The notes under the pieces are model-generated. The model had not been told where the DNA came from, ran no database searches, and saw only the letters and a program-made list of their open reading frames with translations. 64,000 nucleotides of DNA, from positions 7,805 through 71,804 of the forward strand of contig JBARSF010000017.1 in assembly GCA_049644605.1 (NCBI GenBank), given 5' to 3'. The position numbers and the translations under genes were made by a program. Below are positions 45,693 to 63,754 of this stretch, piece after piece. This DNA is from Anaerolineales bacterium. GTDB lineage: Bacteria > Chloroflexota > Anaerolineae > Anaerolineales > UBA11858. Numbering within the stretch: position 1 is the stretch's first letter; the number at the start of each line of letters is the position of its first letter.

Positions 45693-45717
45693 ACTCCGCC
45701 GACTGGCGGAGTTTTTT
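45693..45717 (+). terminator. Riboswitch expression-platform terminator
   Basis: actccgcc gact ggcggagt followed by TTTTTT. The aptamer segment ggcggag (45671-45677) duplicates the 3' arm and can form the alternative antiterminator with 45693-45700. Confidence 0.8.
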
Positions 45718-47698: not shown

Positions 47699-49438
47699 AT
47701 GATGGAATCTCGCACACACCAGTCCCTCCGTCACACTTTCTCAAAGTCACCCAGTTTCCTGCTCTGGCTTCTCCCCCTGTTATTCCTGGGGATCTTTTAC
47801 TTTTACCCGCTGGCGGAGATCCTGGGGCTGAGCTTTTCCCGGGCGGAGGTCGGCATCCTGGCCGGTTTTGTGGAATCGGTGACCTCCCCCACCGTTCAAA
47901 AAGTCCTGGGATTTACTTTTAAACAAGCCCTTTTATCTACCCTGCTGACCCTGCTGGTGGGGCTGCCGGGTGCATACCTGTTTGGCCGGCATCAATTCAG
48001 GGGCAAAAAAGTCCTCCGGGCCCTGACCGGAGTCCCCTTTGTGATGCCCACCCTGGTGGTCGCGGCCGGGTTTTATGCCCTGGTGGGTCCCAATGGCTGG
48101 TTAAATCTCCTGTTAATGCGGGTTCTTAATCTTAATCTACCGCCAATCCGCTTTGTTAACAGCTTTGCTGCCATCCTCACCGCCCATGTTTTTTACAACA
48201 CGACCATCATTCTGCGGATTGTAGGAGACTACTGGAGCCGGTTGGATCCCCGCCTGGAGAGCGCAGCCCGGACCCTGGGCGCGAACCGGTGGAAAACCAT
48301 CCGGGAAATCACTCTGCCCCTGCTCCTGCCGGCTGTCGCAGCGGCTTCCCTGCTGGTGTTCATATTTGACTTCACTTCCTTTGGGGTGATCCTGGTGCTG
48401 GGGGGACCCCAATTTGCCACCCTGGAAGTGGAAATTTATTACCAGACCATCAGCCTGTTTAATCTGCCCCTGGCAGCCACACTTTCAGTCCTCCAGGTAG
48501 GTTTCACCTTGGTACTGACCGTGTTGTATACCCGGATCACCGCCGGCCTGAGCCGGCCGGTCAGTCTATCCTCCAGGAAAAGAACCCAGCGTCCCCTTCA
48601 GAGAGGAAAAACCAGGTTGGCCGCAGGATTATTTATCTCGCTCTTATTGGTTTTCTTAATCTCCCCCTTGGCTGCCCTGGCAGGGCATTCAATCACGCCC
48701 CTGGCCGGAAGTGGAGGGCAGGGAGAAGGGATCGGATCCATTTTTACGCTGTCTTTTTATCAGGCCCTAGCCCAAAATCCCCAGCAGTCGCTCTTTTATG
48801 TTCCCCCCACTACCGCCCTGGGTGTGTCCCTGGGGTATGGGTTGATTACGGTGGTTCTGGCTTTGGTCCTGGGGCTGCCGGCCGCCTGGGCCCTGGCAAA
48901 AAAGAATTTGACGTTTTTAGATCGGGTATTGGACCCTGTGTTAATGCTGCCGCTGGGTACCTCGGCTGTGACGCTGGGGTTGGGATTCCTGGTGGCGCTG
49001 GATCACCCTCCGTTAAACTTACGAACCTCCCCCCTGCTGGTACCCATCGCTCACACCCTGGTGGCCTTTCCGTTTGTGGTCCGCAGTTTAACCCCGGCTT
49101 TAAGCAGCATCCAACCGGAGCTGCGCCAGGCAGCATCCGTTCTGGGCGCCTCCCCGGTCAGGATCTTCAGGGAGATTGACCTGCCGCTGATTGGGCGGGC
49201 CCTGCTGGTAGCAGCCTCGTTTGCTTTCACAATCTCAATTGGTGAGTTTGGCGCCAGCTCGCTGATTGTCCGACCGGAATATCCCACCGTGCCGGTTGTG
49301 ATTTACCGGCTGCTCTCCCGACCTGGTGCTCTGAATTATGGTCAGGCCATGGCGTTAAGCACAATCCTGATGGGAGCGGTATTGGTTGGCATGTTAATAA
49401 TGGAACATTTCCGCCTGGGCGAAGTAGGAGAGTTTTAA
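47699..49438 (+). CDS. thiP: ABC transporter permease with duplicated transmembrane domain, ThiP-like
   Basis: 579 aa, about 12 TM segments, two EAA-like loops (ESAARTLGANRW, RQAASVLGASP). No ATPase gene follows. Confidence 0.78.
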   Translation: MMESRTHQSLRHTFSKSPSFLLWLLPLLFLGIFYFYPLAEILGLSFSRAEVGILAGFVESVTSPTVQKVLGFTFKQALLSTLLTLLVGLPGAYLFGRHQFRGKKVLRALTGVPFVMPTLVVAAGFYALVGPNGWLNLLLMRVLNLNLPPIRFVNSFAAILTAHVFYNTTIILRIVGDYWSRLDPRLESAARTLGANRWKTIREITLPLLLPAVAAASLLVFIFDFTSFGVILVLGGPQFATLEVEIYYQTISLFNLPLAATLSVLQVGFTLVLTVLYTRITAGLSRPVSLSSRKRTQRPLQRGKTRLAAGLFISLLLVFLISPLAALAGHSITPLAGSGGQGEGIGSIFTLSFYQALAQNPQQSLFYVPPTTALGVSLGYGLITVVLALVLGLPAAWALAKKNLTFLDRVLDPVLMLPLGTSAVTLGLGFLVALDHPPLNLRTSPLLVPIAHTLVAFPFVVRSLTPALSSIQPELRQAASVLGASPVRIFREIDLPLIGRALLVAASFAFTISIGEFGASSLIVRPEYPTVPVVIYRLLSRPGALNYGQAMALSTILMGAVLVGMLIMEHFRLGEVGEF

Positions 49439-49522: not shown

Positions 49523-49575
49523 AATTTTTCACACTAACTCAAGGGGGAGTAATTGTTTAAGTATCTTGACTGGAT

Positions 49576-49603
49576 TATGTGATGTGATAGAATATTTTTC
49601 GCT
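49576..49603 (+). promoter_or_regulatory. Promoter of tRNA-Asp
   Basis: TTGACT (49576-49581), 16-nt spacer, extended -10 TGaTAGAAT (49595-49603), ~10 nt before the tRNA 5' end. Confidence 0.65.
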
Positions 49604-49613
49604 GGGGGCGTGG

Positions 49614-49689
49614 TGTAGCGGTTAACATGCGGCCCTGTCAAGGCCGAGATCGCCGGTTCGAATCCGGTCGTCCCCGCCAGGTAAAGAGA
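49614..49689 (+). tRNA. tRNA-Asp(GUC): tRNA-Asp (anticodon GUC), CCA encoded
   Basis: Folded by hand. Acceptor GGGGGCG/CGTCCCC, D stem GTGT/ACAT, anticodon stem CGGCC/GGCCG with loop CTGTCAA, T arm GCCGG-TTCGAAT-CCGGT, discriminator G, CCA. Confidence 0.9.
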
Positions 49690-49697
49690 ACCACTCG

Positions 49698-49724
49698 AAA
49701 AGAGTGGTTCTTTTGGTTTAAGTC
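49698..49724 (+). terminator. tRNA terminator hairpin (copy 1 of 3)
   Basis: gaaccactc gaaaa gagtggttc TTTT. Near-identical copies occur at 58686-58712 and 60294-60320. Confidence 0.8.
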
Positions 49725-49810
49725 CACACTAAGGACTTTTTACAGATCATGCCGTGAGGGATATGTTACACTGTCATTGTAGGTAATAAATAAATCTGAC
49801 AAAGGGTAAT

Positions 49811-49888
49811 GATAAATACTTATCCTTCACTGAGTCAGAAAATAGCTTATTCATTTATCACGCGTTTGAAAGCTAATTAACGTTAGGC
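49811..49888 (+). other. attI-like recombination site A (two 20-22-nt direct repeats + core GTTAGGC)
   Basis: gataaatacttatccttcac (49811-49830) and gaaaatagcttattcatttatc (49838-49859), then a 22-nt spacer ending taattaac, then GTTAGGC (49882-49888). The same layout occurs at 60421-60506. Confidence 0.6.
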
Positions 49889-49915
49889 ACCGTATCAATA
49901 AAAGGAGGTTAAACG

Positions 49916-50353
49916 ATGAAAAGTGTTTATAACACTGGTGATCGTGCATCAAAATGGATCCGTTGGATTGCACGTATTTGGTCCTCTCCGATCATAATTT
50001 ACTCTCTGATAATGGTTGCCGGCTATGCATGGAACTGGGTGACAACCGGTGTAGCAGACCCCTATGCGGTGGAAGGATATCCCCCCACAGAAGCCCTGCC
50101 CCCCATCTTAATGTTTCTGAGTATCTTGGGATTAGGCATCGCCTGGCGTTGGGAGAGACTAGGGGGAGCGATTACCCTTGTTTTCCTATTAGCAACGGTT
50201 TCGTTGCTTCTTATTCAAAGCCCGATCACTGATGATTTCTATCACTCAGCGATCCCTTATTTTATGTCGGTGGTGATTGCCATCCCTGGAATATTGTTCT
50301 TGGTATGTTGGTGGCGATCGAGAACGGTGCCAATAGTTAAGAACGGTGCCTAA
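49916..50353 (+). CDS. Cassette 1: small integral membrane protein, unknown function
   Basis: 145 aa, 4 hydrophobic segments, AGGAGG RBS. The stop TAA lies inside the R'' core GCCTAAC. Confidence 0.75.
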   Translation: MKSVYNTGDRASKWIRWIARIWSSPIIIYSLIMVAGYAWNWVTTGVADPYAVEGYPPTEALPPILMFLSILGLGIAWRWERLGGAITLVFLLATVSLLLIQSPITDDFYHSAIPYFMSVVIAIPGILFLVCWWRSRTVPIVKNGA

Positions 50354-50422
50354 CCCCCGCTGCACCCGACCCTTCGATCCGCCCTGCGGGCTACTCAGGG
50401 CAGGTGAGCTCTTCCGTTATGC
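50348..50422 (+). repeat. attC1 (75 bp)
   Basis: GCCTAAC ccccgctgcaccc ... gccctg/cagggc stem ... ggtgagctcttcc GTTATGC. The R'' core is the reverse complement of GTTAGGC at 49882. Confidence 0.85.
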
Positions 50423-50473
50423 GCTATCTTTTTTTTGTATGCTAAAGTTCGATGTGTTTGAAGGAGGAAAGCA

Positions 50474-51157
50474 ATGGATTTGTCCTTACTAAAACCATAT
50501 CATGGTTACCAATCATCAATTATTCCATTCTCTAGTGGTTATTATCTCTATCTTGCAAGCTGGGACAGCACACCAACCAGCTTTTCTTCCTTCTCCAATA
50601 TTTGGGTGGTCACGCCAGAAGATAAAAGAATACTATTCGCAGATCCTCCAGCTTCGAGCGAAATTGTCTGTATTTATCATGATTTCCATGAAATCTATGG
50701 AGCGTCAATATCTCTTGATTGGGCTTTAGAAAATCATCTCCGGATTCAATGTGCGTCTCTTAATAATGACAACGAACTGGACGCTGAATTTTACTTACAG
50801 GAGACTCTATCGTCACGATTGCTTGTTTCCCTTGCCAGTAGTCCCCCCACACGGTTCATGGTTTCCAAACCCCTGGTAACAATATCAAACTTCTTGGTGA
50901 ACTTATTTGTAGCCAAGGGAGGCTCGACATTACTTGGAAAAACTGAAACCGGTCAGACTTTCTATAATGGCTCGACTGACCGATTATTTAAAGTCATTCA
51001 AGGTTCTGCAACCTTGAATGGCAAGGATTTGGGAGAGGTTTCAAGACCCACTTGGCCTGTAGAATTTGGTGATGCTATTCCATTTGTTCAGCCTGTGATT
51101 AAGTTGGGAACTCTCTACATACCTTACGAAGAAGAAATGCTGGAGAATAGCGCATAA
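50474..51157 (+). CDS. Cassette 2: hypothetical soluble protein (227 aa)
   Basis: GGAGG RBS. The stop TAA lies inside the R'' core GCATAAC. No family recognised. Confidence 0.75.
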   Translation: MDLSLLKPYHGYQSSIIPFSSGYYLYLASWDSTPTSFSSFSNIWVVTPEDKRILFADPPASSEIVCIYHDFHEIYGASISLDWALENHLRIQCASLNNDNELDAEFYLQETLSSRLLVSLASSPPTRFMVSKPLVTISNFLVNLFVAKGGSTLLGKTETGQTFYNGSTDRLFKVIQGSATLNGKDLGEVSRPTWPVEFGDAIPFVQPVIKLGTLYIPYEEEMLENSA

Positions 51158-51275
51158 CCCCCGCTCCACCCGACAGCCGGTAAAGACGGAAGACGGGGGA
51201 CGGAGGACAGGAAAGGCAAAGCCCGGCTGCGGGTGTCCTTCGTTAGCTCAGGATAATTAAGCTCATCCGTTGGGA
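51152..51275 (+). repeat. attC2 (124 bp, composite 3' end)
   Basis: GCATAAC ccccgctccacccgacagccgg ... cccggctgcgggtg ... GTTAGCT (51242) ... ataattaagctcatcc GTTGGGA (51269). The R'' core is the reverse complement of GTTATGC at 50416. Confidence 0.8.
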
Positions 51276-51288
51276 GGCAACAAAAACT

Positions 51289-52173
51289 ATGTTGATTGAT
51301 CCAAACGAAAATCGTAAAAACATCGAAAAATACTTGAGTAAGAATCTGGGATACCAGGTAGAGTTAGTTCAAGTAACGAAGTTAACGAAAGGCACGCGAG
51401 AAGCCCCCTGGAAATTAGTGATTGAAGCTAATGGAAAAGATGAATCATATGTGCTTCAGTTAGATCAAAAGAGCCTGGATTATGAATATCAAGTTCTAAA
51501 AGTAATGGAACGGATTCCGATTCCCACTCCAAAAGCATATGGACTGGAATTATCAGGGAAAGAAATTGGAGTTCCATGTTACTTTAGTGATTTCATTGAA
51601 GGCGAATCACTGCTAGAGCCAATGCTTGCAGGTGATTTTTGGGCTGAAGAGTTGTACATCAATACAGTCAGTGAATTACAATCAGTCACAGAAGAAGAGT
51701 TAGGAAGTTTTGCCAAGACATTAAAATATGAAACCGCTGAAGATGTGTTGGAAGAAGCATATTCTGACCTGAAAACCGCATCGCGTTCTTTAGTTGATGA
51801 TGCATACAGAGAACTGAAAAACACTATGCTGGAGTTACCCGCAGTACAGTTTAGCAATGGGGATTTATGGCTAGAGAACTTTATCGTGAAAGATAGGAAA
51901 TTAGCGGGTGTTATCGATTTTCCAAACGCAACGTTTAGCGATCCGATATATGAGTTCTTATTGACATTCTTTGTTGCACCAGAACTGCAAGGACGGGGAA
52001 TAGAAGAACGGTATTGTCGCCAAATGGGATATGACCCGTCTGCACTTCATTGGTATCACGGCCTAGAGTATTTTGACACATGGCGCTGGGTCTTAAAAAC
52101 TGGCGAAGGTTTTGTTCATCATACAGCTGAAAGTTTAGAGACAGATTTACGGAATTGGTTAGGTGGTAAATGA
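51289..52173 (+). CDS. Cassette 3: aminoglycoside/choline-kinase-type phosphotransferase (APH family) protein
   Basis: 294 aa with a Brenner-like motif NGDLWLENFIV and a downstream VIDFPNATFSDPIYEF (DFG-like) segment. Confidence 0.7.
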   Translation: MLIDPNENRKNIEKYLSKNLGYQVELVQVTKLTKGTREAPWKLVIEANGKDESYVLQLDQKSLDYEYQVLKVMERIPIPTPKAYGLELSGKEIGVPCYFSDFIEGESLLEPMLAGDFWAEELYINTVSELQSVTEEELGSFAKTLKYETAEDVLEEAYSDLKTASRSLVDDAYRELKNTMLELPAVQFSNGDLWLENFIVKDRKLAGVIDFPNATFSDPIYEFLLTFFVAPELQGRGIEERYCRQMGYDPSALHWYHGLEYFDTWRWVLKTGEGFVHHTAESLETDLRNWLGGK

Positions 52174-52193
52174 CTAAAGAAGCAGACGTTGCC

Positions 52194-52320
52194 GCACAAC
52201 CCAAGTTGCACCGGACTTGGCGATAGCCAAGGGGGTACGTGGCGCGATTTGCTGATTCTAGTTTTGGTTCAAGGATGGATCAGAGCAAATACCGCCAAGC
52301 CAGTGAACAAACCGTTATCT
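52194..52320 (+). repeat. attC3 (127 bp, long family)
   Basis: GCACAAC ccaagttgcaccgg ... gcgcgatttgct ... ccagtgaacaaacc GTTATCT. The R'' core matches the upstream core GTTGGGA at only 5 of 7 positions. Confidence 0.7.
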
Positions 52321-52338
52321 GGCAAAGGAAGCCCTCTC

Positions 52339-53493
52339 ATGAGACTTAATCCATTCAAACTTGAACGCTACTTCGCTAAGCATGAGTTCTCGACCCCGTA
52401 TTTGCTATGTTCCTCGGATTGCGAAAGCATAGAACTGCGGGACCTGCTGGCCCTCGAACCAGGGGCACCAGAGCGGCTATCCGCGCTTTGGCTCGGCTAC
52501 ACGGAGTCACTAGGCAATCCTGAGCTTCGGCATGCCATAACAACACTGTATGATCATATAGAGGCCAATCAGGTTCTTGTGCACGCAGGAGCCGAAGAGG
52601 CGATCTTCAATTTCATGAACGTCGTTCTCAGCCCTGACGATCACGTCATCGTGCATTCGCCCCACTACCAGTCTCTTGGAGAGGTGGCTCGGAGTATCGG
52701 TGCCAACGTATCCGAATGGCAAGGCAATCCGGATAATACGTGGGAACTCGACCTTAAATTTCTGGAAAGTTCTCTCACCGCTCGTACGAAGGTGGTAGTG
52801 GTCAACTTCCCACACAATCCAACCGGGTTTCTGCCTAGGTCCGAGTTCGTACGCGAGCTATCGGCGCTCTCCGATCAGCACGGTTTCATCGTCTTCTCTG
52901 ATGAGGTGTACCGCGGACTGGAACTCGATCCGTCCGACCATTTACCCGCCTTCACCGATCTAAACAATCGCGCTGTATCGCTTGGTGTGATGTCGAAGAC
53001 CTACGGCCTCGCCGGATTGCGAATCGGCTGGATCGCGACTCGTGACGACCGTCTCTTCCGCGAGCTTGCAGCGTTCAAGGACTACACGACCATCTGCAAC
53101 AGTGCTCCAAGTGAGTTCCTGGCGACTCTTGCATTGCGACATGCCGAAGTAATTGTCGAACGAAACCTGCAGATCATCCGCGACAACCTCGATCGCCTCG
53201 ACTCTTTCTTCGACTCTCATACGGATCTGTTCGGCTGGTATCGTCCCAAGGCTGGGTCTATAGCATTCCCCTCGCTGCTACGGGGAGCGGTTGATGAGTT
53301 CTGCGCCGATCTGGCTGAAAAGTCAGGAGTCCTACTGCTGCCGGGAACCCTCTATGGAGAAGAGTACAACTCGTTCCGCATCGGCTTCGGCCGCAAGAAC
53401 TTGCCCGAATCTCTTAAAAGGTTCGAGGCGTACCTGCGAAGACCAGATAACAAGGCTAATTCAGCCGACGTAAAAAGCCGCGCTGCTAATTAG
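52339..53493 (+). CDS. Cassette 4: class I/II PLP-dependent aminotransferase
   Basis: MRLNPFKLERYFAKHEF N-terminus and an SKTYGLAGLRIGW lysine motif. Start moved to 52339 (AAGGAAG upstream) because the track start at 52189 lies inside attC3. The C-terminal codons read into attC4. Confidence 0.8.
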   Translation: MRLNPFKLERYFAKHEFSTPYLLCSSDCESIELRDLLALEPGAPERLSALWLGYTESLGNPELRHAITTLYDHIEANQVLVHAGAEEAIFNFMNVVLSPDDHVIVHSPHYQSLGEVARSIGANVSEWQGNPDNTWELDLKFLESSLTARTKVVVVNFPHNPTGFLPRSEFVRELSALSDQHGFIVFSDEVYRGLELDPSDHLPAFTDLNNRAVSLGVMSKTYGLAGLRIGWIATRDDRLFRELAAFKDYTTICNSAPSEFLATLALRHAEVIVERNLQIIRDNLDRLDSFFDSHTDLFGWYRPKAGSIAFPSLLRGAVDEFCADLAEKSGVLLLPGTLYGEEYNSFRIGFGRKNLPESLKRFEAYLRRPDNKANSADVKSRAAN

Positions 53494-53504
53494 CAGCGTT
53501 AGGC
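53445..53504 (+). repeat. attC4 (60 bp)
   Basis: AGATAAC aaggctaattcagcc ... gctgctaattagcagc GTTAGGC. The R'' core is the exact reverse complement of GTTATCT at 52314. Confidence 0.8.
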
Positions 53505-53510
53505 TGTTGA

Positions 53511-54350
53511 ATGAGTAAAGTGAAAATGATTAGTTTGGAAGAGATACGAATGATACGAATCGATGCTGGACCTTTCACTATGGGAACCAGCGAACGAGAG
53601 ATCGATATAATAGAAAGGCAAGATGATCTCGCCAAGAAATGGAGAATCAAAGGCAACTTCAGTAGAGAACAGCCACAATGCACTATTTCGCTGAAACCAT
53701 ACTTGATATCAAAGTATCCCGTAACAGTTGGGGAATACAGAAAATTCCTAAAAGCAAAAGGATATCAAACACGGCAGTATTGGACAGAAACGGGATGGTT
53801 ATGGGTGCAATCAAATAATAGAAAGCAACCTGATTATTGGAATGAACAAAAATGGACCTGGAATGATAAGCTCCCAGTGATAGGAGTAAGTTGGTATGAA
53901 GCAATGGCATATTGTCACTGGATATGTGAAAGTACAGGAAAGAAAGTGCGCCTGCCAACGGAAGCAGAGTGGGAAAAGGCAGCACGTGGAAGGGATAAGA
54001 GGATATATCCTTGGGGGAATGAGTTTGATGTAAATATGTGTAACACAAGATTGAGTGGACTGAATAAAACAATACCAGTTGATGAAGCTAGCCCAAGTTC
54101 CGAAAGCCCATATAAATGTTGTGACATGGCAGGGAACGCGTCTGAGTGGACGATAAGCGAATTCAAGCCATATCCTTACAAGGGAGAAAATGGAAGAAAC
54201 GAAATTGAAGGAGAGAAATTGCGGGTTGTTCGGGGAGGTTCTTGGTTCAAACCACAAATAAGAGCCAGAGTATCGGCTCGTGGGATGAACGATCCATTCT
54301 TTACAGATAACGATGTAGGATTTAGATTTGTGTGTGAAGCATATGGATAG
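53511..54350 (+). CDS. Cassette 5: formylglycine-generating enzyme (SUMF1/FGE-sulfatase) domain protein
   Basis: [35 protein letters not shown] and RVVRGGSW motifs. Start (53511 or 53526) is uncertain. Confidence 0.8.
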
Positions 54351-54357
54351 AAGCACA

Positions 54358-54481
54358 GCCTAACCACCGCTCCACCCGACAGCCAGGGGCGGGACCGGGG
54401 ACGAGGACGGAAGACCGGGAATAATAATCTGGCTGCGGGTGCCCTTCGTAAGCTCAGCATAATTAAGCTTATGCGTTAGGT
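54358..54481 (+). repeat. attC5 (124 bp, composite 3' end)
   Basis: GCCTAAC caccgctccacccgacagcc ... ggctgcgggtg ... GTAAGCT ... ataattaagcttatgc GTTAGGT. The R'' core is the reverse complement of GTTAGGC at 53498. Confidence 0.8.
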
Positions 54482-54503
54482 CGCAGTTTGTCAGGGAGTG
54501 ACT

Positions 54504-55169
54504 ATGATACGGGCTATTGTAGTGACAGTGGCATTATTCCTCCTCCTAGGAGGGTGCTTATTCGGCGGCGCCGGCACTATGTCATGGCCTATAGCTTGGG
54601 CTGTTCTGGGTATTTATTCCGCCTCCAAGGCGGCTACCTTCGCCTTCGTCGACCCAGCACTCATCAAGGAACGGGCGGCACCCGGGCAGGGCGTGGACCG
54701 CGTTGATAAGGTGCTCGCGACCTTGGGATATCTGGGCCTGTACCCTGGTTCATTTGTGGCCGCTGGGCTTGATGCGGTTCGCTTCGGCCCCTCCATCCCC
54801 ATCCCCCAATTTATCAAGCTGACGGCGCTCCTCATCTTTGCTCTCGGCTATGGCATAGCATTCTGGGCAGTACTTTGCAACCCGTTCTTCTCCACCTTTG
54901 TGCGAATTCAGGATGATCGTGACCACTCGGTCGTCTCATCAGGCGCGTATGCTCTGGTTCGGCATCCTGGCTATGCGGGCGTTCTTCTCGCCCACTTGGC
55001 CCTTCCGCTCGCGCTTGGATCTATCTGGTCTTTGGTACCAGCGGCTGTGGGCACGATCTTGTTCGTGGCGCGAACAGCACGCGAAGATCAAACGCTTCGA
55101 GACCATCTTGTCGGGTACCGTGAGTATCAAACCCGGGTTCGTTGGCGACTTTTACCAGGAGTTTGGTAG
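54504..55169 (+). CDS. Cassette 6: isoprenylcysteine carboxyl methyltransferase (ICMT/PEMT superfamily) membrane protein
   Basis: GAYALVRHPGYAG ... REDQTL ... YREYQTRVRWRLLPGVW. Start set to the ATG at 54504 (GGGAG 5 nt upstream); the track start is a GTG at 54498. Confidence 0.8.
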   Translation: MIRAIVVTVALFLLLGGCLFGGAGTMSWPIAWAVLGIYSASKAATFAFVDPALIKERAAPGQGVDRVDKVLATLGYLGLYPGSFVAAGLDAVRFGPSIPIPQFIKLTALLIFALGYGIAFWAVLCNPFFSTFVRIQDDRDHSVVSSGAYALVRHPGYAGVLLAHLALPLALGSIWSLVPAAVGTILFVARTAREDQTLRDHLVGYREYQTRVRWRLLPGVW

Positions 55170-55202
55170 CCGGATGCCTGCGGGTGAGCTCTTTCGTTGG
55201 GC
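55170..55202 (+). repeat. attC6 remnant (3' half only)
   Basis: ccggatgcctgcgggtgagctctttc GTTGGGC retains the L'/R' half. The expected R'' core (ACCTAAC) and L'' box are absent. Confidence 0.6.
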
Positions 55203-55232
55203 GCGTCTTGGAAACGGTCACGGGAGGTTACC

Positions 55233-55904
55233 ATGAAACATGCCGTTGAATTATTTTTTAGGATTGCCCTTTTGGTGCTCACCTTGTTTATTTGGCTGTG
55301 GGCGCTCAATCAACCGAGTTCAAATACAATGAATCTGATCCTCATTGCAGGAAGTGTATTGTTGGTATTCCCAACCGTTTGGCTCGGGAGGATGATCCTC
55401 GACAGACAGCCAACAACGAGCCGCGCCGCCTGGATAACCATCTTTGTCCATTATGCCGTGTTGATCATATTTGGCATTGCCATCATTCAAGCAGTAACCA
55501 CTCATCAAGATTGGTCTGGCTGGGTACTCCCAGTACCAACTGAAATCGGCTTGTTGTTAGTCATTATTACCGGGGCAGCCGCACTGTTCTCCGTGATAAA
55601 CCTTGCCTTAAAAGGGCTCGGTGCACCTTTTGCGATTGCGCTCAGCAAGAAATTGGCGGTAGATTGGATGTATGCCTGGACGCGTAATCCCATGGTGCTT
55701 GCAACTCTGGCCCTTCTGCTGTCATTGGGAATCTGGTTTCAGTCAGTGCTGTTTGTGCTCTGGGTACTCATCCTGTTTACACCGGCATTGCTTGTCTTCG
55801 TGAAAGTGTATGAAGAACGAGAACTAGAGTTACGCTTTGGGGCATCCTATCTGGAGTACAAATCCAGAACGCCGATGTTGTTTCCAAGAAAGCCAAGAGG
55901 TTAA
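55233..55904 (+). CDS. Cassette 7: second ICMT/PEMT-superfamily membrane methyltransferase
   Basis: MYAWTRNPMVLA ... YEERELELRFGASYLEYKSRTPMLFP. Start set to the ATG at 55233 (GGGAGG upstream). Confidence 0.78.
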   Translation: MKHAVELFFRIALLVLTLFIWLWALNQPSSNTMNLILIAGSVLLVFPTVWLGRMILDRQPTTSRAAWITIFVHYAVLIIFGIAIIQAVTTHQDWSGWVLPVPTEIGLLLVIITGAAALFSVINLALKGLGAPFAIALSKKLAVDWMYAWTRNPMVLATLALLLSLGIWFQSVLFVLWVLILFTPALLVFVKVYEERELELRFGASYLEYKSRTPMLFPRKPRG

Positions 55905-55914
55905 ACCATGTGCC

Positions 55915-56041
55915 GCCCAACACCGGCTCCAGCGGACAGCGGCTCTGCCGCTCGAAAACCGGTGCGATTTGCCAGAAATAGTCCATAATTGAGAAAGAGT
56001 CTCGCCAGCTCCGCGGCTGCGGCTGAGCTCATCCGTTGGGC
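55915..56041 (+). repeat. attC7 (127 bp, long family)
   Basis: GCCCAAC accggctccagcgg ... ggtgcgatttgcc ... ggctgagctcatcc GTTGGGC. The R'' core is the reverse complement of GTTGGGC at 55196. Confidence 0.85.
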
Positions 56042-56084
56042 GGCAATAAATGACTCGCTGGAATATTAGACAAAGGAAGAACAC

Positions 56085-56465
56085 ATGAAGCTGGCAAGAT
56101 GGACTTTTCGAACCGCAGGTATCTTTGGTTTAATCGTGATGGTTCCACTACTTTTTGCTGAGAAGTTGATCGTTCAGATCATGCCACCAGTCGTAAATCA
56201 TCCAGAGTTCTTTTATGGTTTCGTTATTCTGAATATATGCTGGCAGATTTTGTACCTTTTCTTGTCCAAGGATCCGGTCCGATTTCGCCCTATAATGATC
56301 CCTTCCTTTTTCGCAAAAGCAAGCGGACCGGTTGCTTTGATGTGGTTATATTTTCAAGGTCGGATTTCCAGGCAGTGGATTACGACTACAATACTGGATG
56401 GAGTTTTCGCTATCCTATTCTTAATCTCGTTTTGGTTAACAGGGCAGGAAACCAGCAGTGCTTGA
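56085..56465 (+). CDS. Cassette 8: small integral membrane protein, unknown function
   Basis: 126 aa, 4 hydrophobic segments, AAGGAAG RBS. Confidence 0.7.
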   Translation: MKLARWTFRTAGIFGLIVMVPLLFAEKLIVQIMPPVVNHPEFFYGFVILNICWQILYLFLSKDPVRFRPIMIPSFFAKASGPVALMWLYFQGRISRQWITTTILDGVFAILFLISFWLTGQETSSA

Positions 56466-56594
56466 ATACAATAGAGAAGACCAAAAAAAGACTCTAATTT
56501 CGTAGTTGTTTTAAGCAGCCTTCCGGAAGATCCTTATTTCACTTGTTTCTCTCAAGATTTGATTTTGGAAAATAAGAAGTCAAGGGAAAAAGCC

Positions 56595-56651
56595 GCCCAA
56601 CCCCCCAGGCACATGACCGTGCTGCGCTGGGGAGGAAGCGGCGCGTTTTGC
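56595..56651 (+). repeat. attC8 (57 bp, non-canonical R' core)
   Basis: GCCCAAC cccccagg ... ctgggg aggaagcggcgc GTTTTGC. gccGCCCAAC is the reverse complement of GTTGGGCggc at 56035. Confidence 0.7.
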
Positions 56652-57041
56652 AGCATTTGGCTCTGGCTAAACCAGCTTCAGGAACAAAAACGCACGGCAA
56701 ATGATGTCATCGTTAGCCTGGCAAAACTTGCAGATTGAATAATCATTTGGCTGCCTGGACCCGGAATAAGGATTCTGTGAAAATTAATTATGTGGTTTCC
56801 GGAACGATTCGTGCTGGTTATTTTATGATTTATGCTGATCGAGATAAAAATATGGTGGCGTGAATATTCATAAGAAACAATCATTGAATCACCCTTAATA
56901 AATCTCGCTTTTTTAGCTTGATCCCATTTCGGGTAGAAGATGGTGCTGATTATCAGGTTTAAATCCCTTATTCTTGCTATAATCTAGTAGTTACTCAAAA
57001 CCAGATTCTGGATATGTGTTGGACCTCTAGGAGTAATGATT

Positions 57042-58523
57042 ATGGCGCATGATGTGTTTATCAGCTACTCAACCAAAGACAAGACTGTCGCTGATACGAT
57101 TGCAGCCTCACTGGAGGGAAAACAAATCCGCTGCTGGTATGCGCCCAGAGACATCAAAGCCGGGGCCGATTGGGGGGAAGAGATCGCCCAGGCCATTAAC
57201 GCCAGCACGATTTTTTTGCTGATCTTCTCCAGCAGCGCCAACCAGTCTCAACGGGTGCTGGATGAGCTGAATCTGGCCATAACAAAAGAAGCGGTTATTC
57301 TGCCCTTCCGGATCGAAAAGTTGGATCCCAGCGGCGCCATGCAGCTGCATCTTTCTTCCAGGCATTGGTTGGATGCATTCCTACCCTCCTGGGAAAAACA
57401 CATTGATAACCTTGTCAACAGCGTTTTCTCCAATCTGGAAACCGGCGAAAGCACCGCAGCAGTTGATTATGCCAGATCTTTTGATCAAACCTCAAAACCG
57501 AAAAAAAGAAAACTCTGGCTGTTTGGGGCTGTTGGGACCGTTGTTATTGCCGGCTTGGGGGCAATTTTTGGCCTCCCAAAGCTTTTTGGCCCACCTGATA
57601 TCATCCCAACAGAATTAGCACCGACTGTAACTACTCATTCGACGGCGATTATTCCCACCGACACCAGCGTTCCCACACCCATTCTCCCGACCCTGGGCAG
57701 CGCAGAAGCTCCCCTGATCTGGATGTACGTTCCCAGGGATGATATCGACTTTAACGAGGTCAGTACCACAGTTGATGAAATCGTCAAGGATTTTCAAGAA
57801 ATAAATCCGAATTTATCCCTGAAGATTATCCCCGCTACCAATGAAATCACAATAATTGAAGCGCTCTGTGCCGGGGAAGCGCACATCGGATCACTTAATG
57901 CCTTCACATTCATGGCCGCGTCAAGCCGGGACTGTGCTGAAGCCAAATTAATCTGGAGTGCGTACGGCGATATCAACGTTGGAGGTATGATCGTTACTAA
58001 CGCAGACAGTGGGATTACTGATATTTCAGCATTAGAAGGTCAACCGCTTTGCATCCCTAACTATACTAGTACTTCCGGATGGGTATTGCCCTCCCTCGAG
58101 ATTCAAGCATCCATAGAGAGGGATCCTGATTCCTTTTTTAGTGAGATTATCGAAAAAAATGGACATGATAAAGTTATTTGGGAAGTTTATAACGGGAATT
58201 GCATTGCGGGAACAGCCTTTTATGATGCTCGGTTAAATTATTCAGATATCCCTGATATCAATGACCGTGTTGTTATACTCTCTACTACCACCTCTGTCCC
58301 CCTATCAAACTTCAGTTTCAGTAAAATCATTCCACCCGAACTCTCCCAAAAGCTGATTGCCTTTTTCCTCAATTCTGCGGAATTAGATAATTTATCAATC
58401 ATTTGTGGGTATTCCCATCATACAAATCCCATCAAATTAATTGAGATCAATGATTATTACTATAACGAGATCTGGGATTTGTTCCAGCGGGCCGGGGAAA
58501 ACCCGGAAGATTATTTACGGTAG
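57042..58523 (+). CDS. TIR domain - single TM helix - PhnD-like periplasmic solute-binding domain fusion protein
   Basis: N-terminus DVFISYSTKDK ... CWYAPRDI ... IFLLIFS ... VLDELN (TIR_2-like, conserved Glu). KPKKRK then TM LWLFGAVGTVVIAGLGAIFGL. C-terminus ALCAGEAHIGSLNAF, GMIVTNADSGITDISALEGQPLCIPNYTSTSGW (phosphonate-bd-like). AGGAG lies 8 nt before the ATG at 57042. Confidence 0.8.
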   Translation: MAHDVFISYSTKDKTVADTIAASLEGKQIRCWYAPRDIKAGADWGEEIAQAINASTIFLLIFSSSANQSQRVLDELNLAITKEAVILPFRIEKLDPSGAMQLHLSSRHWLDAFLPSWEKHIDNLVNSVFSNLETGESTAAVDYARSFDQTSKPKKRKLWLFGAVGTVVIAGLGAIFGLPKLFGPPDIIPTELAPTVTTHSTAIIPTDTSVPTPILPTLGSAEAPLIWMYVPRDDIDFNEVSTTVDEIVKDFQEINPNLSLKIIPATNEITIIEALCAGEAHIGSLNAFTFMAASSRDCAEAKLIWSAYGDINVGGMIVTNADSGITDISALEGQPLCIPNYTSTSGWVLPSLEIQASIERDPDSFFSEIIEKNGHDKVIWEVYNGNCIAGTAFYDARLNYSDIPDINDRVVILSTTTSVPLSNFSFSKIIPPELSQKLIAFFLNSAELDNLSIICGYSHHTNPIKLIEINDYYYNEIWDLFQRAGENPEDYLR

Positions 58524-58632
58524 ATAACTCTTACCCCTGTGGAATAAAGCGGGAGAATTCAAGCGAAACATCATTCTTATGATCGGCGGGAGCAGAACTG
58601 ATTAAGGTCTGGGAACCACTGCTATAAAATAT

Positions 58633-58677
58633 GGGGCAATAGCCGAAATCGCCGGTTCGAATCCAGTCGTCCCCTCA
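58633..58677 (+). pseudogene. Decayed tRNA-Asp copy (3' half retained, D and anticodon arms missing)
   Basis: agccgaaatcgccggttcgaatccagtcgtcccctca (58641-58677) matches tRNA positions 49652-49689 with about five differences. It is preceded by ggggc, resembling the 5' acceptor strand. Confidence 0.75.
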
Positions 58678-58685
58678 GTGAAAAA

Positions 58686-58712
58686 GGACCACTCGAGAGA
58701 GGGGTTCTTTTT
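58686..58712 (+). terminator. Terminator hairpin copy 2 of 3
   Basis: ggaccactc gaga gaggggttc TTTTT, a degenerate copy of 49698-49724 in the same position relative to the tRNA remnant. Confidence 0.65.
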
Positions 58713-58875
58713 GTGTTAAAGGAGGTATAATGGCAATTCTCCCTAGTAGAATTAGCTGCCCTGCTGAGACCATACCATCACTCAGGGCAGATGTTTGTAA
58801 TCCAAAATCCATAAATGGGGGGATCATCATTGAAGTTATCAGAGAAATTCAATTAAGCAGTCCTTTAGGAGCTCT

Positions 58876-60069
58876 ATGATGGCTAAACAATATTTGAAGT
58901 TTAAGCTTTGGATAATCCCAGTCCTGCTGATTTGGATGGCGATCAGCACATCTTGCGAGCGTGTGGAGGGGGGAGAGGACCAAGAAACCCCGGCATTGCC
59001 GCAGGCGACTGTCCCGGTAGCAACCCTGGAGGATAATCAATCATCCAGCGAGGATGGAGAACCTGAAGATTTATCGACCCCTCAGTCGCCAGAACACCTG
59101 GTTTCCGGGCTTGTCCTTGGAAGTATGAGCGAAACATTCTATGTGGATCTGACCGGCCAGGTTGTACTCCTGGTGGATCAAACTCTTGCGCAGCTCAACG
59201 CTGACCATGATCTAGTTCTTTTTGCCCGTGAGGATCCAGCCAATTATAAAAACGATATCTGGATTTTGGATCTAGAGAGCGGGGAAGAACAAAACTTGAC
59301 CCAAACTCCAGACCGGGATGAAATCTTCCCTCAGTGGTGGCCGGCCCATCCCGAGATGGCTTTTTTTGTATCGGGGGAAGAAACCGGGATGATGAACAGC
59401 GAACAGCCGACAATCGTCAACCTGGATGGTTCTGGATATCAAGTCCTTGATGAGAATCAAGGGGGACCCAATACTTTGGCGTCCGATGGAACAATGATTG
59501 CTTACGGGGGATTTGATCAAGTTGGGGTTATCTATCATTGGGATGGTAAATTTGAAGACTTCTACCCCGAGGACTATGGCTTAAATGTAGAGAAAATATT
59601 CCAACCCGCATTCTCGCCGGACGGGCGCTTCCTGGCCTGGAAAGTGGCCGGCGACTTAAATGGGGATGGCAGCTACGCAATTGGCCTGGCAATCTTTGAT
59701 CTCCAGGAACGAACAGCGATCCTGACCCATGTCTACATCGTGCAGGGAGGAGGTATGGTCCCTCATTATGTCGCCTGGAGCCCGGATGGGAGTTGGATTG
59801 CTTATGTCACTTTCGGCGAGGGACCCGCTGTTGAGCGAGAACCCAATCTGTGGATTCTGCGCCCGGACGGCAGCCAGGAAATGTTTGTTGACATTGGCCT
59901 TGACCCTACCTGGAGCCCCGATGGCTCAAGTCTGGCGTACATTCGCACGACCATGGAAGGTGAGCAAGGACTGCAAATCATGGATCTCAAGAGCTTAAGC
60001 ATCACGCCAATTGATGATCTGTCGTTCCCGGGTGCACTGAATTTCATCATCGACTGGATTCAGCCTTAA
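58876..60069 (+). CDS. Lipoprotein with TolB-like PD40 beta-propeller repeats
   Basis: Signal peptide with lipobox-like ISTSC. Repeated FSPDGRFLAW, WSPDGSWIAY and WSPDGSSLAY motifs. Confidence 0.78.
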   Translation: MMAKQYLKFKLWIIPVLLIWMAISTSCERVEGGEDQETPALPQATVPVATLEDNQSSSEDGEPEDLSTPQSPEHLVSGLVLGSMSETFYVDLTGQVVLLVDQTLAQLNADHDLVLFAREDPANYKNDIWILDLESGEEQNLTQTPDRDEIFPQWWPAHPEMAFFVSGEETGMMNSEQPTIVNLDGSGYQVLDENQGGPNTLASDGTMIAYGGFDQVGVIYHWDGKFEDFYPEDYGLNVEKIFQPAFSPDGRFLAWKVAGDLNGDGSYAIGLAIFDLQERTAILTHVYIVQGGGMVPHYVAWSPDGSWIAYVTFGEGPAVEREPNLWILRPDGSQEMFVDIGLDPTWSPDGSSLAYIRTTMEGEQGLQIMDLKSLSITPIDDLSFPGALNFIIDWIQP

Positions 60070-60255
60070 GATCAGATCATGGGGGTCCTGGCGGCCGCGA
60101 AGCACATCCCGGCGGCTCAACCGAGCGCCATAAGTGACTGCGGTTTTTCGCCCTTCAGCGACGATACCGGCACATCCCGGGAAATCGCCTTTGCGAAAGT
60201 GGCAGCCCGGGTGCAGGGCACCGAGCTGGCCGCGGCCCAGCTGGGGGTTGCCTAA
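60070..60255 (+). pseudogene. Fragment resembling the C-terminus of a cobalamin-independent methionine synthase (MetE-like) family gene
   Basis: Visibly GC-rich 186-nt stretch open in frame from the preceding stop. It encodes ...SDCGFSPFSDDTGTSREIAFAKVAARVQGTELAAAQLGVA*. There is no N-terminal part, and at 58 aa from its ATG it is too short for the track. Confidence 0.45.
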
Positions 60256-60293
60256 AGCCAGTCTCTAAGAGATAAGTTTCATTTAATTAAAAA

Positions 60294-60320
60294 GAACCAC
60301 TCGTGAGAGTGGTTCTTTTT
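60294..60320 (+). terminator. Terminator hairpin copy 3 of 3
   Basis: gaaccactc gtga gagtggttc TTTTT, with stems identical to 49698-49720. Confidence 0.75.
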
Positions 60321-60420
60321 GTGTTTAAGGACAACCCCACGCCAGGTTTTGTCAGCGGCGTAACAACTATGCTACACTGTCATTAGAGGGAGTAGATTTC
60401 GCCGGGTACGATGGATGCCA

Positions 60421-60506
60421 GATAATAACTTATTCATTTAGCAGGAGACATACTGGATAACTACTTATTCAGTTATCCCGCAGTTACAAGATAATTAACG
60501 TTAGGC
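60421..60506 (+). other. attI-like recombination site C
   Basis: gataataacttattcatttagc (60421-60442) and gataactacttattcagttatc (60456-60477), then a 22-nt spacer ending ataattaac, then GTTAGGC (60500-60506). Confidence 0.6.
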
Positions 60507-60550
60507 CACTCGTTTCTGAAAGTGTCTATTCAAGTAAGGATAATCTCAAG

Positions 60551-61501
60551 ATGAATGACAAATTGGATATGAAACGCATTACTATTTTCCTTACCTTCAC
60601 CTTTGGAATCGCCTGGCTCAATGGCTTGATCATCTATCTTACTGGGGGCTTAGTCGATAGCCCGGAAATTATCCCAGGCAGTGGAATCACTATCTCCCTG
60701 GTGCTTTTGGCTGGGGGCTATATGTGGGCACCTGCGTTGGCACACATTCTCACCCGTCTGATCACGCGCGAAGGCTGGAAGGACACTTACTTGCGTCCCC
60801 GAAGGCAAGGATGGCAATACTGGATTGCGGCCTGGTTCATACCGTCTATCATGACTATCCTAGGTGCGGGACTATTCTTTGTTGTTTTTCCAAAATACTT
60901 TGATCCATCGCTCAAAGTGCTTCAAGAGATGCTAGCGAAAACGGGCCAGGACACCTCGACCCCTTTGTGGACGATTGTTATTTTTCAAACTCTCTTTGGT
61001 GTACTGATTGCTCCGTTCATCAACAGCTTATTTTCTTTTGGCGAAGAGTTTGGTTGGCGGGCCTATTTACAGCCCAAACTTATGCCGCTCGGTGGACGTA
61101 AAGCTATACTGTTGATAGGACTGATCTGGGGTGTGTGGCATTGGCCCGTTATCGCAATGGGGCACAATTATGGTCTTGAATATCCTGGTGCACCTTGGCT
61201 GGGTTTGTTGATGATGGTGTGGGTCACAATAGGCCTTGGAACATTCTTGGGATGGCTAACAGTACGGGCAGGCAATGTATGGCCGGCCGTAATCGGTCAC
61301 GCTGCCATTAACGGTATTAGCGGACTGGCTGCCGTATGCGTATTGGGCAACCCTAATCCTTTGCTGGGCCCATTGCCAATTGGTCTAATAGGCTCGGCGG
61401 CATGGGTTTTGCTGACTTTGGCGATTCTCCTGAAGCCTGGTACGCTCGACGCGGGTCATGTTGAGTCGCTCCAGGTGGATGAAGCAAATCCAAAAGTGTA
61501 A
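60551..61501 (+). CDS. Cassette 1': CPBP family intramembrane glutamic endopeptidase (CAAX protease/Abi family)
   Basis: EEFGWRAYLQP, GVWHWP and IGHAAING motifs; multiple TM segments. Confidence 0.82.
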   Translation: MNDKLDMKRITIFLTFTFGIAWLNGLIIYLTGGLVDSPEIIPGSGITISLVLLAGGYMWAPALAHILTRLITREGWKDTYLRPRRQGWQYWIAAWFIPSIMTILGAGLFFVVFPKYFDPSLKVLQEMLAKTGQDTSTPLWTIVIFQTLFGVLIAPFINSLFSFGEEFGWRAYLQPKLMPLGGRKAILLIGLIWGVWHWPVIAMGHNYGLEYPGAPWLGLLMMVWVTIGLGTFLGWLTVRAGNVWPAVIGHAAINGISGLAAVCVLGNPNPLLGPLPIGLIGSAAWVLLTLAILLKPGTLDAGHVESLQVDEANPKV

Positions 61502-61558
61502 TATCAGACGATTCTGAAAATTGAAGAAGTACAAGCAGATTTCGAGAATAGGGGTGCG

Positions 61559-61576
61559 GCCTAACCCAAGTTAGGC
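61559..61576 (+). repeat. attC1' reduced to an 18-bp palindrome
   Basis: GCCTAAC ccaa GTTAGGC, with no inner L boxes. Both cores agree with the cassettes on either side. Confidence 0.65.
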
Positions 61577-61649
61577 CTCATAAATCTATGAATTCTTATT
61601 GTTGATACAATTTGGTAATAAATCGAATAACAAAAATAGAAAAAAAGGA

Positions 61650-61892
61650 ATGAAGGAAATGATACATTTACATGAAAAAGGAACGAAAACTCTAGTAGGA
61701 AATATTAGCGAACAACAGCTACAAGTTTTGATAGATCAGCTCGAAGAAGAATGGTTAGAAGATAAAGATTATTCAATAACACCCTTAATACTTGATGCTT
61801 TTGAAGCTGAAGGTGTTGATTCGGAATTGATCTCAATATTATGGGCTGCTCTTGGGGATCGAGATGAGATCGTGGTTGTTTGGAGTAAATGA
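61650..61892 (+). CDS. Cassette 2': small acidic hypothetical protein (~78-80 aa)
   Basis: ORF rich in D/E (LIDQLEEEWLEDKDY). Start ambiguous (61650 or 61659; the track start at 61599 is unlikely). Confidence 0.55.
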   Translation: MKEMIHLHEKGTKTLVGNISEQQLQVLIDQLEEEWLEDKDYSITPLILDAFEAEGVDSELISILWAALGDRDEIVVVWSK

Positions 61893-61899
61893 ATGTGAG

Positions 61900-62000
61900 G
61901 CCTAACCCCCGCTCCACCCGACAGCCGGTTAAGGACGGACGACCGCGGACGGAGGACCGGAAAGGTAAAGCCCGGCTGCAGGTGAGCTATTCCGTTATGC
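61900..62000 (+). repeat. attC2' (101 bp)
   Basis: GCCTAAC ccccgctccacccgacagccgg ... cccggctgcaggtgagctattcc GTTATGC. The R'' core is the reverse complement of GTTAGGC at 61570. Confidence 0.85.
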
Positions 62001-62004
62001 GTCA

Positions 62005-62610
62005 TTGATCAATACAGGAGTTAAACAATTTCTTTGGAGATTTCTGGTGGAATCAATACTTAGATTAAAGAATCGGAAGATTCGTTTCTTATGGTCCTTT
62101 CTATTCCTTTTTATTACTTCTAGTATTGCTGCATTTCTTGTCTACTATGGAATCATATTGTTGAAAATTGGAAATAATTATGATGCCCCAATCAGGATTT
62201 CTGATGGATATCACGGAGGTTATCTATCGTTGATCTCTGAACACCCTTTCCCTTTTCTTATGTCTATTTCACTAATTCTCGCAATTTCAGGAACCCTATG
62301 GGTTGTTAGTATACTACCTAAATTTCAACGCTTCCAATTCTTACAGATTTTACTAATCCCGTGGATTTCACTAATTATCGCGAGTCCCATCTGGGGTTTG
62401 ATATGGTCAATTTATCGCTGGCCCCCTCAAGGATTTTCAGATTCCTCCGTAATGTGGATGTACTATCGGCATGACTTATTATTCGGGCTTAGATTAGGTT
62501 GGTTATCAGCTCTCCTGTCATTTCCAATTAACATTATCAGTTACGTTTTCGCAGTGGGATTGATCTACCTTAGTTCAAGAATATTCATGATGAAAAACCT
62601 AGACATTTAA
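62005..62610 (+). CDS. Cassette 3': AT-rich integral membrane protein, unknown function
   Basis: About 5 TM segments. The track start is a TTG at 62005; a GTG at 62047 with GGAGA 6-7 nt upstream is an alternative. Confidence 0.65.
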   Translation: MINTGVKQFLWRFLVESILRLKNRKIRFLWSFLFLFITSSIAAFLVYYGIILLKIGNNYDAPIRISDGYHGGYLSLISEHPFPFLMSISLILAISGTLWVVSILPKFQRFQFLQILLIPWISLIIASPIWGLIWSIYRWPPQGFSDSSVMWMYYRHDLLFGLRLGWLSALLSFPINIISYVFAVGLIYLSSRIFMMKNLDI

Positions 62611-62624
62611 CCAGTATTTTATCC

Positions 62625-62749
62625 GCATAACCTCCGCTCCACCTGCGCGCCGGGCAAGCCGGGCGCCCGATCGCTTCTCCCCTTACCAGTTTTTTAATCT
62701 ATAATCAACATTAACTGGCCCCGGCGCCAGGTGAGCTCATCCGTTGGGC
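62625..62749 (+). repeat. attC3' (125 bp)
   Basis: GCATAAC ctccgctccacc ... ggcgccaggtgagctcatcc GTTGGGC. The R'' core is the reverse complement of GTTATGC at 61994. Confidence 0.85.
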
Positions 62750-62788
62750 GGACGTGGCAATCAGGCTGTCACACCAGAGAGAACATCA

Positions 62789-63592: not shown

Positions 63593-63601
63593 TCTATGCC
63601 C

Positions 63602-63724
63602 GCCCAACAACCGCTTGCAGCCGACCCCGCGGGCTGCGCGATTTGCTAACAAAGGCACTGGTATGGGACCCTTTAATAGCAAGCCAATATCCGAGCGGGG
63701 CAGCTGAGCTCAAAACCGTTATGC
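63602..63724 (+). repeat. attC4' (123 bp, long family)
   Basis: GCCCAAC aaccgcttgcagcc ... ctgcgcgatttgct ... cagctgagctcaaaacc GTTATGC. ccGCCCAAC is the reverse complement of GTTGGGCgg at 62743. Confidence 0.85.
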
Positions 63725-63754
63725 AGCTTTGAGTTTTTCTTCTGAGATTGATCA

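Follow-up and report, generated by a model that had tools for sequence, protein, structure and literature searches.

An integrase-less integron module apparently inserted into the tRNA-Asp gene of an Anaerolineales bacterium

Islands that lie in tRNA genes are reportedly bounded by repeats drawn from the 3' part of the tRNA, strands being exchanged at either the anticodon loop or the T loop. In Proteobacteria, integrons are carried by islands such as SGI1 and by tRNA-linked islands with class 1 integrons; these encode an island integrase of their own and an intact intI1, and they contain much backbone. CALINs are attC clusters without an integrase; no intI pseudogene was found near 95% of them, and their origin was left open (Cury et al. 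2016, PMC4889954). Here, we describe a locus that recalls each of these systems. It lies in a 64,000-nt stretch, hereafter the window, that corresponds to positions 7805-71804 of contig C17 (JBARSF010000017.1; 210,722 bp) in the metagenome-type assembly GCA_049644605.1 of an Anaerolineales bacterium (74 contigs, 3.76 Mb, 46% G+C). An intact tRNA-Asp gene is followed in the window by an attI platform and a cassette array, a displaced copy of the tRNA 3' half, and a second platform and array. We consider it reasonably probable, from the comparisons set out below, that tRNA-Asp took in a 9.0-kb integron module that lacks an integrase, and that the array further downstream is an older resident.

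As in tRNA-inserted islands, the block is framed by an intact tRNA and, at its far end, by a displaced 3' part of that tRNA; the anticodon stem and loop is where the repeat begins, and the downstream region is highly variable among relatives. Unlike in those islands, the block includes no integrase or excisionase, its content consists wholly of an attI platform and cassettes, and the repeat continues through the terminator. An integron as the cargo of a chromosomally integrated island is also the arrangement of SGI1-type islands, but this block lacks both integrases and has hardly any backbone. Like it, sedentary chromosomal integrons and CALINs have cassettes on one strand, attC sites of one family between them and no intI nearby. 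Unlike CALINs, however, the arrays described here retain a complete Pc/attI platform and stand in tandem, and about half of the platforms in the genome are led by a tRNA gene or tRNA fragment. The scar is thus that of a tRNA-integrated island and the content that of a sedentary integron or CALIN, while one defining trait of each, the island integrase and intI, is missing. No description of tRNA-led attI platforms was found in full-text literature searches or in Cury et al. 2016 (PMC4889954).

The features that make up the locus are the following.
47699-49438, + strand: ABC-transporter permease gene (BPD_transp_1; Pfam), the left neighbour of tRNA-Asp, kept across the genus
49566-49593, + strand: sigma70-type promoter of tRNA-Asp, TTGACT, 16 nt, TG-n-TAGAAT (10/12 matches, with TG)
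49604-49679, + strand: intact tRNA-Asp(GTC) gene (ARAGORN; Rfam 65.6 bits)
49643-49679, + strand: left copy of the repeat, tRNA-Asp positions 40-76
49684-49714, + strand: terminator hairpin 1 (-19.7 kcal/mol, z -5.6), then GTTTAAG
49762-49888, + strand: Pc/attI-1 platform, with extended -10 promoter TATGTTACACT (49762-49772), GATAA/TTATC repeats and core
49873-49888, + strand: attI-1 core, CTAATTAAC followed by GTTAGGC (49882-49888)
49889-58533, + strand: array 1, seven cassette-like units (Pfam; attC model R1)
58534-58641, no strand: junction DNA, 108 nt, with no detected homologue
58642-58678, + strand: displaced tRNA-Asp 3' half (positions 40-76), right copy of the repeat
58681-58712, + strand: terminator hairpin 2, decayed (-15.4 kcal/mol), then GTTAAAG
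58876-60069, + strand: PD40 beta-propeller protein gene (Pfam PF07676)
60085-60255, + strand: 3' stump of a MetE-like (PF01717) gene, last 55 codons and stop, an ancestral neighbour of tRNA-Asp
60288-60321, + strand: terminator hairpin 3 (-21.1 kcal/mol, z -7.3), then GTTTAAG
60368-60506, + strand: Pc/attI-2 platform, TTGTCA, 18 nt, TG-TACACT, then core
60491-60506, + strand: attI-2 core, GATAATTAAC followed by GTTAGGC (60500-60506)
60507-64000, + strand: array 2 (CAAX protease, 97-aa ORF (open reading frame), 201-aa ORF, LCM methyltransferase, and more)

The assembly holds a single tRNA-Asp gene, that at 49604-49679. The initial annotation had rightly seen it as intact, with a promoter and a terminator, and had placed it ten bases too far to the right, at 49614-49689; the promoter motif is also conserved in relatives. 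The decayed 3' half that it reported is real and, with its limits adjusted to 58642-58678, matches tRNA-Asp at 31 of 33 bases, after which three of the last four differ. This region is closer to tRNA-Asp than to any other tRNA, and it has no tRNA fold (z = 0.48). The direct repeat runs from tRNA position 40 through the terminator, with 83.75% identity over 80 nt. Its boundary falls in the anticodon stem and loop, and its left flank is unrelated to the tRNA. A vestige of the -10 region and 5' acceptor had been proposed to the left of the fragment; when the tRNA promoter and 5' half were sought there by local alignment, the score was 16 versus 14.3 +/- 2.1 for shuffled sequences (p = 0.24), and the best alignment was not the one claimed. 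The 108-nt junction at 58534-58641 has no match elsewhere in the genome or the genus and no likeness to the tRNA promoter or 5' half.

Three copies of the terminator hairpin, each followed by GTTTAAG or GTTAAAG, had been noticed, and all three were found, at corrected positions (49684-49714, 58681-58712 and 60288-60321). Copies 2 and 3 share 91% identity over 43 nt, and hairpin 2 is probably the original tRNA-Asp terminator. As the AACCACTC...GAGTGGTT hairpin occurs in the whole genome only at this locus and at one site on contig C74 (C74:12548), it is not a generic repeat. Two other candidates were rejected. GTTTAAG and GTTAAAG are not integron core sites: they do not fit GTTRRRY, and relatives lacking attI also conserve TTAAG past the terminator. 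The hairpin at 58757-58789, previously linked to attC, does fold (-15.9 kcal/mol), yet scores only 1.7 bits (E = 7.8) with filters off against the attC covariance model R1, which was built from 33 attC sites of this same genome.

The genus comparison covered 37 genomes including this one, that is, 36 other species. Permease orthologues (57-81% identical) lie upstream of tRNA-Asp in same-genus relatives, and the order permease, tRNA-Asp, terminator is common to those examined, with orthologous hairpins 3' of tRNA-Asp in G001, G002, G005, G007 and G011. The DNA downstream of tRNA-Asp is hypervariable among relatives; in G015, G014, G007 and G005, five genes that form a conserved block follow the tRNA at a distance of 2 to 15 kb, and here this block is on another contig. 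The tRNA-Asp 3' half is identical over most of the genus. A true second copy of it was found in this genome alone (1/37). G004 has two copies, which are probably assembly redundancy because they are perfect and lie at contig ends. An attI within 700 nt of tRNA-Asp was found only in this genome and in G011 and G040, where tRNA-Asp, terminator, Pc and attI stand directly in series, attI being approximately 150-215 nt from tRNA-Asp. The G011 and G040 loci are possible donor-type loci.

What lies beyond the tRNA fragment bears on the polarity. A PD40 gene and a MetE-like gene fragment had been placed between hairpins 2 and 3, and Pfam (PF07676) and a 69% identity of 60085-60249 to the final 55 residues of the PF01717 protein of relatives bear out both. 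A full MetE-like gene is found 1.5-3.3 kb downstream of tRNA-Asp in four relatives (G002, G003, G005 and G007). Here, the stump is 1.4 kb past the tRNA fragment, and the genome has no intact MetE-like copy. Hairpin 3 stands 33 nt beyond the MetE-like stop, and a similar hairpin (GCCACTC...GAGTGGC) stands approximately 35 nt beyond the stop of the G003 gene. G040 and G016 have homologues of the PD40 protein (69% identical) whose surroundings differ and include no tRNA, attI or attC, and an exact-protein look-up returned no identical protein on record; the PD40 gene is a replacement of ancestral genes. As the fragment is followed here by the MetE-like stump, and tRNA-Asp in four relatives by the full gene, the fragment would mark the old chromosome. 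On this synteny, the stretch from the fragment through terminator 2, the MetE-like stump and terminator 3 appears to be the old chromosomal continuation of tRNA-Asp, part of it overwritten by the PD40 gene. The block that parts the tRNA from that continuation is 8,999 bp (49643-58641).

The attI-like segments reported after hairpin copies 1 and 3 were confirmed by their GTTAGGC cores. Full-length intI, defined as a TIGR02249 match above the cut-off, is present in 21 of the 37 genomes of the genus. At nine of 12 full-length intI loci in relatives (TIGR02249, 444-470 bits), the divergent upstream region shares the layout of the window platforms: TATGCTATACT, approximately 100 nt with GATAA/TTATC repeats, then GATAATTAAC and GTTAGGC, matching 49762-49888 and 60368-60506. 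Because the same platform adjoins full-length intI in these relatives, the window segments can be taken as true attI sites. The place of intI is occupied by the tRNA and a terminator at platform 1 and by a terminator at platform 2. In this genome, intI survives only as N-terminal stumps on contigs C32 (residues 1-103) and C35 (residues 1-81). With no intact intI in the assembly, the arrays would therefore stay fixed if no integrase came from elsewhere. The genome's largest array (C32:13855-14400, L058; 17 attC matches to model R1) retains attI and Pc; its intI breaks off at about residue 107 and gives way to unrelated DNA and a gene of 573 aa in convergent orientation.

Identity between the two copies of the module differs greatly along its length.
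tRNA 3' half: 94% (31 of 33)
terminators: 74-83%
terminator to promoter: 67%
attI platforms: 62%
Module 1 is colinear with the fragment and terminator 2 and then with the DNA past terminator 3. The 67% between terminator and promoter falls inside the between-species range of the genus (50-68%), and the 62% between attI-1 and attI-2 compares with 60-65% between each of them and other platforms of this or other genomes. A neutral divergence of approximately 33% predicts about 11 changes in the 33 nt of tRNA, and two were seen (p ~3e-4, our binomial estimate). Copies made by tandem duplication should be mutually closest and evenly diverged, whereas the divergence here is 6% for the tRNA part and rises to 38% for the platform. 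As divergence is uneven and the platforms are not mutually closest, the modules had already diverged when they were joined. Judged by these alignments, the arrangement does not appear to be a recent local duplication.

We infer the direction of the event and its recombinase from the anatomy of the locus, the comparison with relatives and the divergence pattern, all of which are observed directly. A single recombination inside the 3' half of the tRNA, in the anticodon loop or immediately past it, would have brought in a module made up of its own tRNA-Asp positions 40-76, a terminator, the Pc promoter, attI and seven cassette units ending in the TIR gene described below. The incoming 3' half would now complete the sole tRNA-Asp gene, and the original 3' half and terminator would have been displaced 9 kb downstream, where they would still precede the ancestral remains: the MetE-like gene cut to 55 codons, the partial replacement by PD40 and the MetE-like terminator. 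The older resident attI platform and array 2 would lie further downstream. The recombinase may have been a tRNA-targeting tyrosine integrase acting in trans; alternatively, Campbell-type homologous recombination over the 37-nt tRNA identity may have taken in a circle from a related tRNA-Asp-linked integron. That the modules had diverged before joining fits entry from a related tRNA-Asp-linked integron of the G011/G040 kind. In the present arrangement, the terminators would keep transcription that starts upstream from entering either array, and each array would be driven by its own extended -10 promoter and would be static unless an integrase acted in trans.

Insertion at tRNA-Asp with displacement of the tRNA end was one of two alternatives in the initial annotation, and it is the better supported of them, given the start at position 40, the MetE-like neighbour and the tRNA part as the best conserved. 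The evidence for it consists of the repeat limits, the ancestral context, the uneven divergence, the distribution in relatives and the attI identity, together with the movement of modules between species, the recurrence in the genome and the tRNA-Val example taken up below. Several points weigh against it. There is no integrase or excisionase gene in the block 49680-58641, and an integrase that might have been expected beyond 64 kb was found neither there nor anywhere else on the whole 210-kb contig C17 (PF00589 and TIGR02249 searched). In relatives, the DNA that follows tRNA-Asp, covered for up to 20 kb, has a single integrase gene, the intI of G015. The enzyme must therefore be inferred. The direction rests on synteny with species at only approximately 75-80% identity, neither module is clearly nearer to relatives, and the junctions are those of the assembled contig. 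The tRNA-Val example involves a short interrupted fragment (12 + 8 nt) and a contig-end overlap. Finally, attI directly follows tRNA-Asp in G011 and G040, and module 1 could therefore be native.

This last point is the starting point of the rival that survives best, in which the polarity is reversed. The tRNA-Asp gene, terminator 1, attI-1 and array 1 would be native, as in G011 and G040, and the incoming DNA would be the fragment-led block (tRNA-Asp 3' half, terminator 2, PD40, MetE-like stump, attI-2 and array 2). This block would derive from the tRNA-Asp locus of a relative; illegitimate recombination would have attached it behind array 1, or an integron integrase would have moved it there as an outsized 'cassette'. 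Besides the short distance from tRNA-Asp to attI in G011 and G040, and modules that similarity to relatives does not distinguish, this account draws on contig C55, where a tRNA-fragment-led platform lies inside an array, 75 nt past an attC, and on tandem attI-array-attI layouts, which are common (C20, C39, C19, and C54 joined to C72). However, it requires two junctions versus one reciprocal exchange, it does not explain why the incoming DNA should start exactly at the tRNA anticodon stem and loop, and the junction at 58534-58641 has no attC or core site. We regard it as unlikely.

The other alternative in the initial annotation was tandem duplication in situ, in which a unit running from tRNA position 40 through terminator and attI to the array would have been copied head to tail, followed by turnover of the cassettes and erosion of the second copy. 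Module 1 is indeed colinear with the second copy once the 1608-bp PD40/MetE-like piece is omitted, and TACACTGTCATT is common to both Pc regions. Nevertheless, the fit is poor: the divergence is very uneven, attI-1 and attI-2 are not mutual nearest relatives, arrays 1 and 2 have no cassette in common, the supposed 5' tRNA remnant is not significant, and the 27 kb beyond yielded no second copy of the right end of the unit, be it the TIR gene or the 108-nt junction. To call the locus a segmental duplication of a tRNA, terminator and attI module, as had been proposed, is an overstatement, since the attI similarity is conservation at the level of the family and terminator 3 sits after the MetE-like stop as in G003. 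We consider tandem duplication improbable.

An assembly artefact, in which two populations were joined at conserved tRNA or terminator sequence, is very improbable despite the fragmented metagenome-type assembly and the tRNA-Asp 3' half shared by most of the genus, as a chimeric join at a repeat yields one copy, whereas here a complete gene is accompanied by a diverged half gene behind unique DNA, the fragment has two substitutions of its own, and repeats of at most 43 nt, set against contig ends that overlap by 127 nt, make misassembly at these repeats unlikely.

This genome has 18 copies of the attI platform. Eight of them are preceded at 115-605 nt, always on the same strand, by a gene or fragment of a tRNA (Asp, Val, Met, Lys or Arg), where chance would give approximately 0.1-0.2 tRNA-led platforms by our estimate (some 95 tRNA genes and fragments in 3.76 Mb). 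The same trait is seen at intI-less platforms of relatives. Among 12 canonical intI loci in relatives, just one is close to a tRNA; the pattern is therefore not explained by integrons beside tRNA genes that simply lost their intI. A leader composed of tRNA-Met', tRNA-Val', terminator, Pc and attI is 92% identical over 423 nt in G043 and this genome, far above the usual non-coding identity between G043 and this species; such modules thus appear to move between species, which we count in favour of insertion at tRNA-Asp.

A tRNA-Val(tac) locus is a probable second example. The ends of contigs C14 and C74 share an overlap of 127 nt. In the joined sequence, tRNA-Val(tac) is followed by an HTH_17/Xis-like remnant (PF12728, 30.3 bits) and then by attI with 12 or more attC sites; after these come the decayed 3' end of a tRNA-Val and a hairpin of the same CCACTC...GAGTGG type. 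We grade it only as probable because its tRNA fragment is short and interrupted. The HTH_17/Xis-like remnant was found in this example only.

Taken further, attI platforms of this Anaerolineales genus that have lost intI and acquired a leader of tRNA 3' end and terminator may form a family of non-autonomous, horizontally moving modules that enter tRNA genes via integrases acting in trans or move as outsized cassettes, and pile up in tandem. We offer this tentatively.

Past 49.9 kb, every ORF in the window is on the + strand, and GCCTAAC...GTTRGGC repeats (attC), imperfect inverted repeats with RYYYAAC and GTTRRRY cores, lie between them. Model R1 detected seven attC sites in the window at E <= 5e-4, and two further, decayed sites with filters off.
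50348-50422, 51152-51248, 54358-54454, 55126-55202 (decayed), 55915-56041 and 56595-56718 (degenerate): attC sites of array 1
57036-58523, + strand: gene for a TIR and phosphonate-type solute-binding protein, the last unit of array 1 (Pfam)
61900-62000, 62625-62749 and 63602-63724: attC sites of array 2

Array 1 encodes, in order, DUF7670, a 227-aa ORF, APH with an aminotransferase and an FGE-sulfatase, two PEMT/ICMT-like methyltransferases, a 126-aa ORF and the TIR protein. Six of its units are bounded by attC and the seventh is the TIR gene. An orthologue of the latter (84% DNA and 80% aa identity) lies directly at an attI core in metagenome contig SDBS01004048.1, and the homology is confined to 56718-58533 of the window; the TIR unit therefore has a cassette boundary at its 5' edge. 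No attC-like fold was found 3' of the TIR gene, here or in the orthologous contig. The APH/aminotransferase cassette (51260-52317) is 96-100% identical to contig pieces of G040, whereas the permease gene of G040 shares only approximately 75% DNA identity with that of this genome, which points to recent cassette exchange between the species. Array 2 extends beyond the window, at least to C17:75316, and the 20 kb past the window contain more cassettes together with housekeeping-type genes.

Some further observations concern attC sites, the left flank and other tRNA fragments. The attC sites at 51225-51279 and 54431-54485 have the same extra piece of approximately 26 nt (…TTCGTWAGCTCAGSATAATTAAGCT…) ahead of the final GTTRGG core; it holds the GATAATTAA motif of the attI core, and at least two further attC sites of the genome carry it. 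The ABC transporter genes that precede tRNA-Asp lie behind a TPP riboswitch (45591-45697; Rfam RF00059, 64.4 bits), which is upstream of a thiamin pyrophosphokinase gene.

Elsewhere in the genome, at least seven copies were found of a unit that consists of a sigma70-type promoter, the exact tRNA-Arg(TCG) 5' half (positions 1-39) and a conserved tail of approximately 190 nt. They are on contig C43 (423, 1955, 4055, 9458 and 14100; minus strand) and at C22:1996 and C19:7740, as well as in L089 (approximately 5280-5500), and in two cases the unit is just upstream of an attI platform. An Rfam scan of the C43 repeats returned no match; the unit could be a split or interrupted tRNA gene, the end of an island, or an RNA of unknown kind headed by a tRNA. 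At C28:12306-12420, a tRNA-Arg(TCG)-like gene is broken by two short hairpin inserts, one of which (CCTTCGACTGTGCTCAGGACAGG) resembles the central part of the attC family. The whole genome has 46 tRNA-fragment loci outside tRNA genes, many of them at contig ends, and approximately 10 are copies of tRNA-Met(CAT) positions 39-74; elements that target tRNA genes thus seem to have come and gone often.

The origin of integrase-less arrays is an open question in integron biology, and this genome, with its 18 platforms and no working integron integrase, offers a readable example in which a complete attI platform and array lie inside a classic tRNA-insertion scar. If the wider pattern is false, what remains is an ordinary but well-resolved case of a scar left by an island in a tRNA gene. 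If it is true, the integron arrays of this group would spread as units via tRNA genes and not solely cassette by cassette, and a family of such modules would give a concrete route by which integrase-less arrays (CALINs) multiply.

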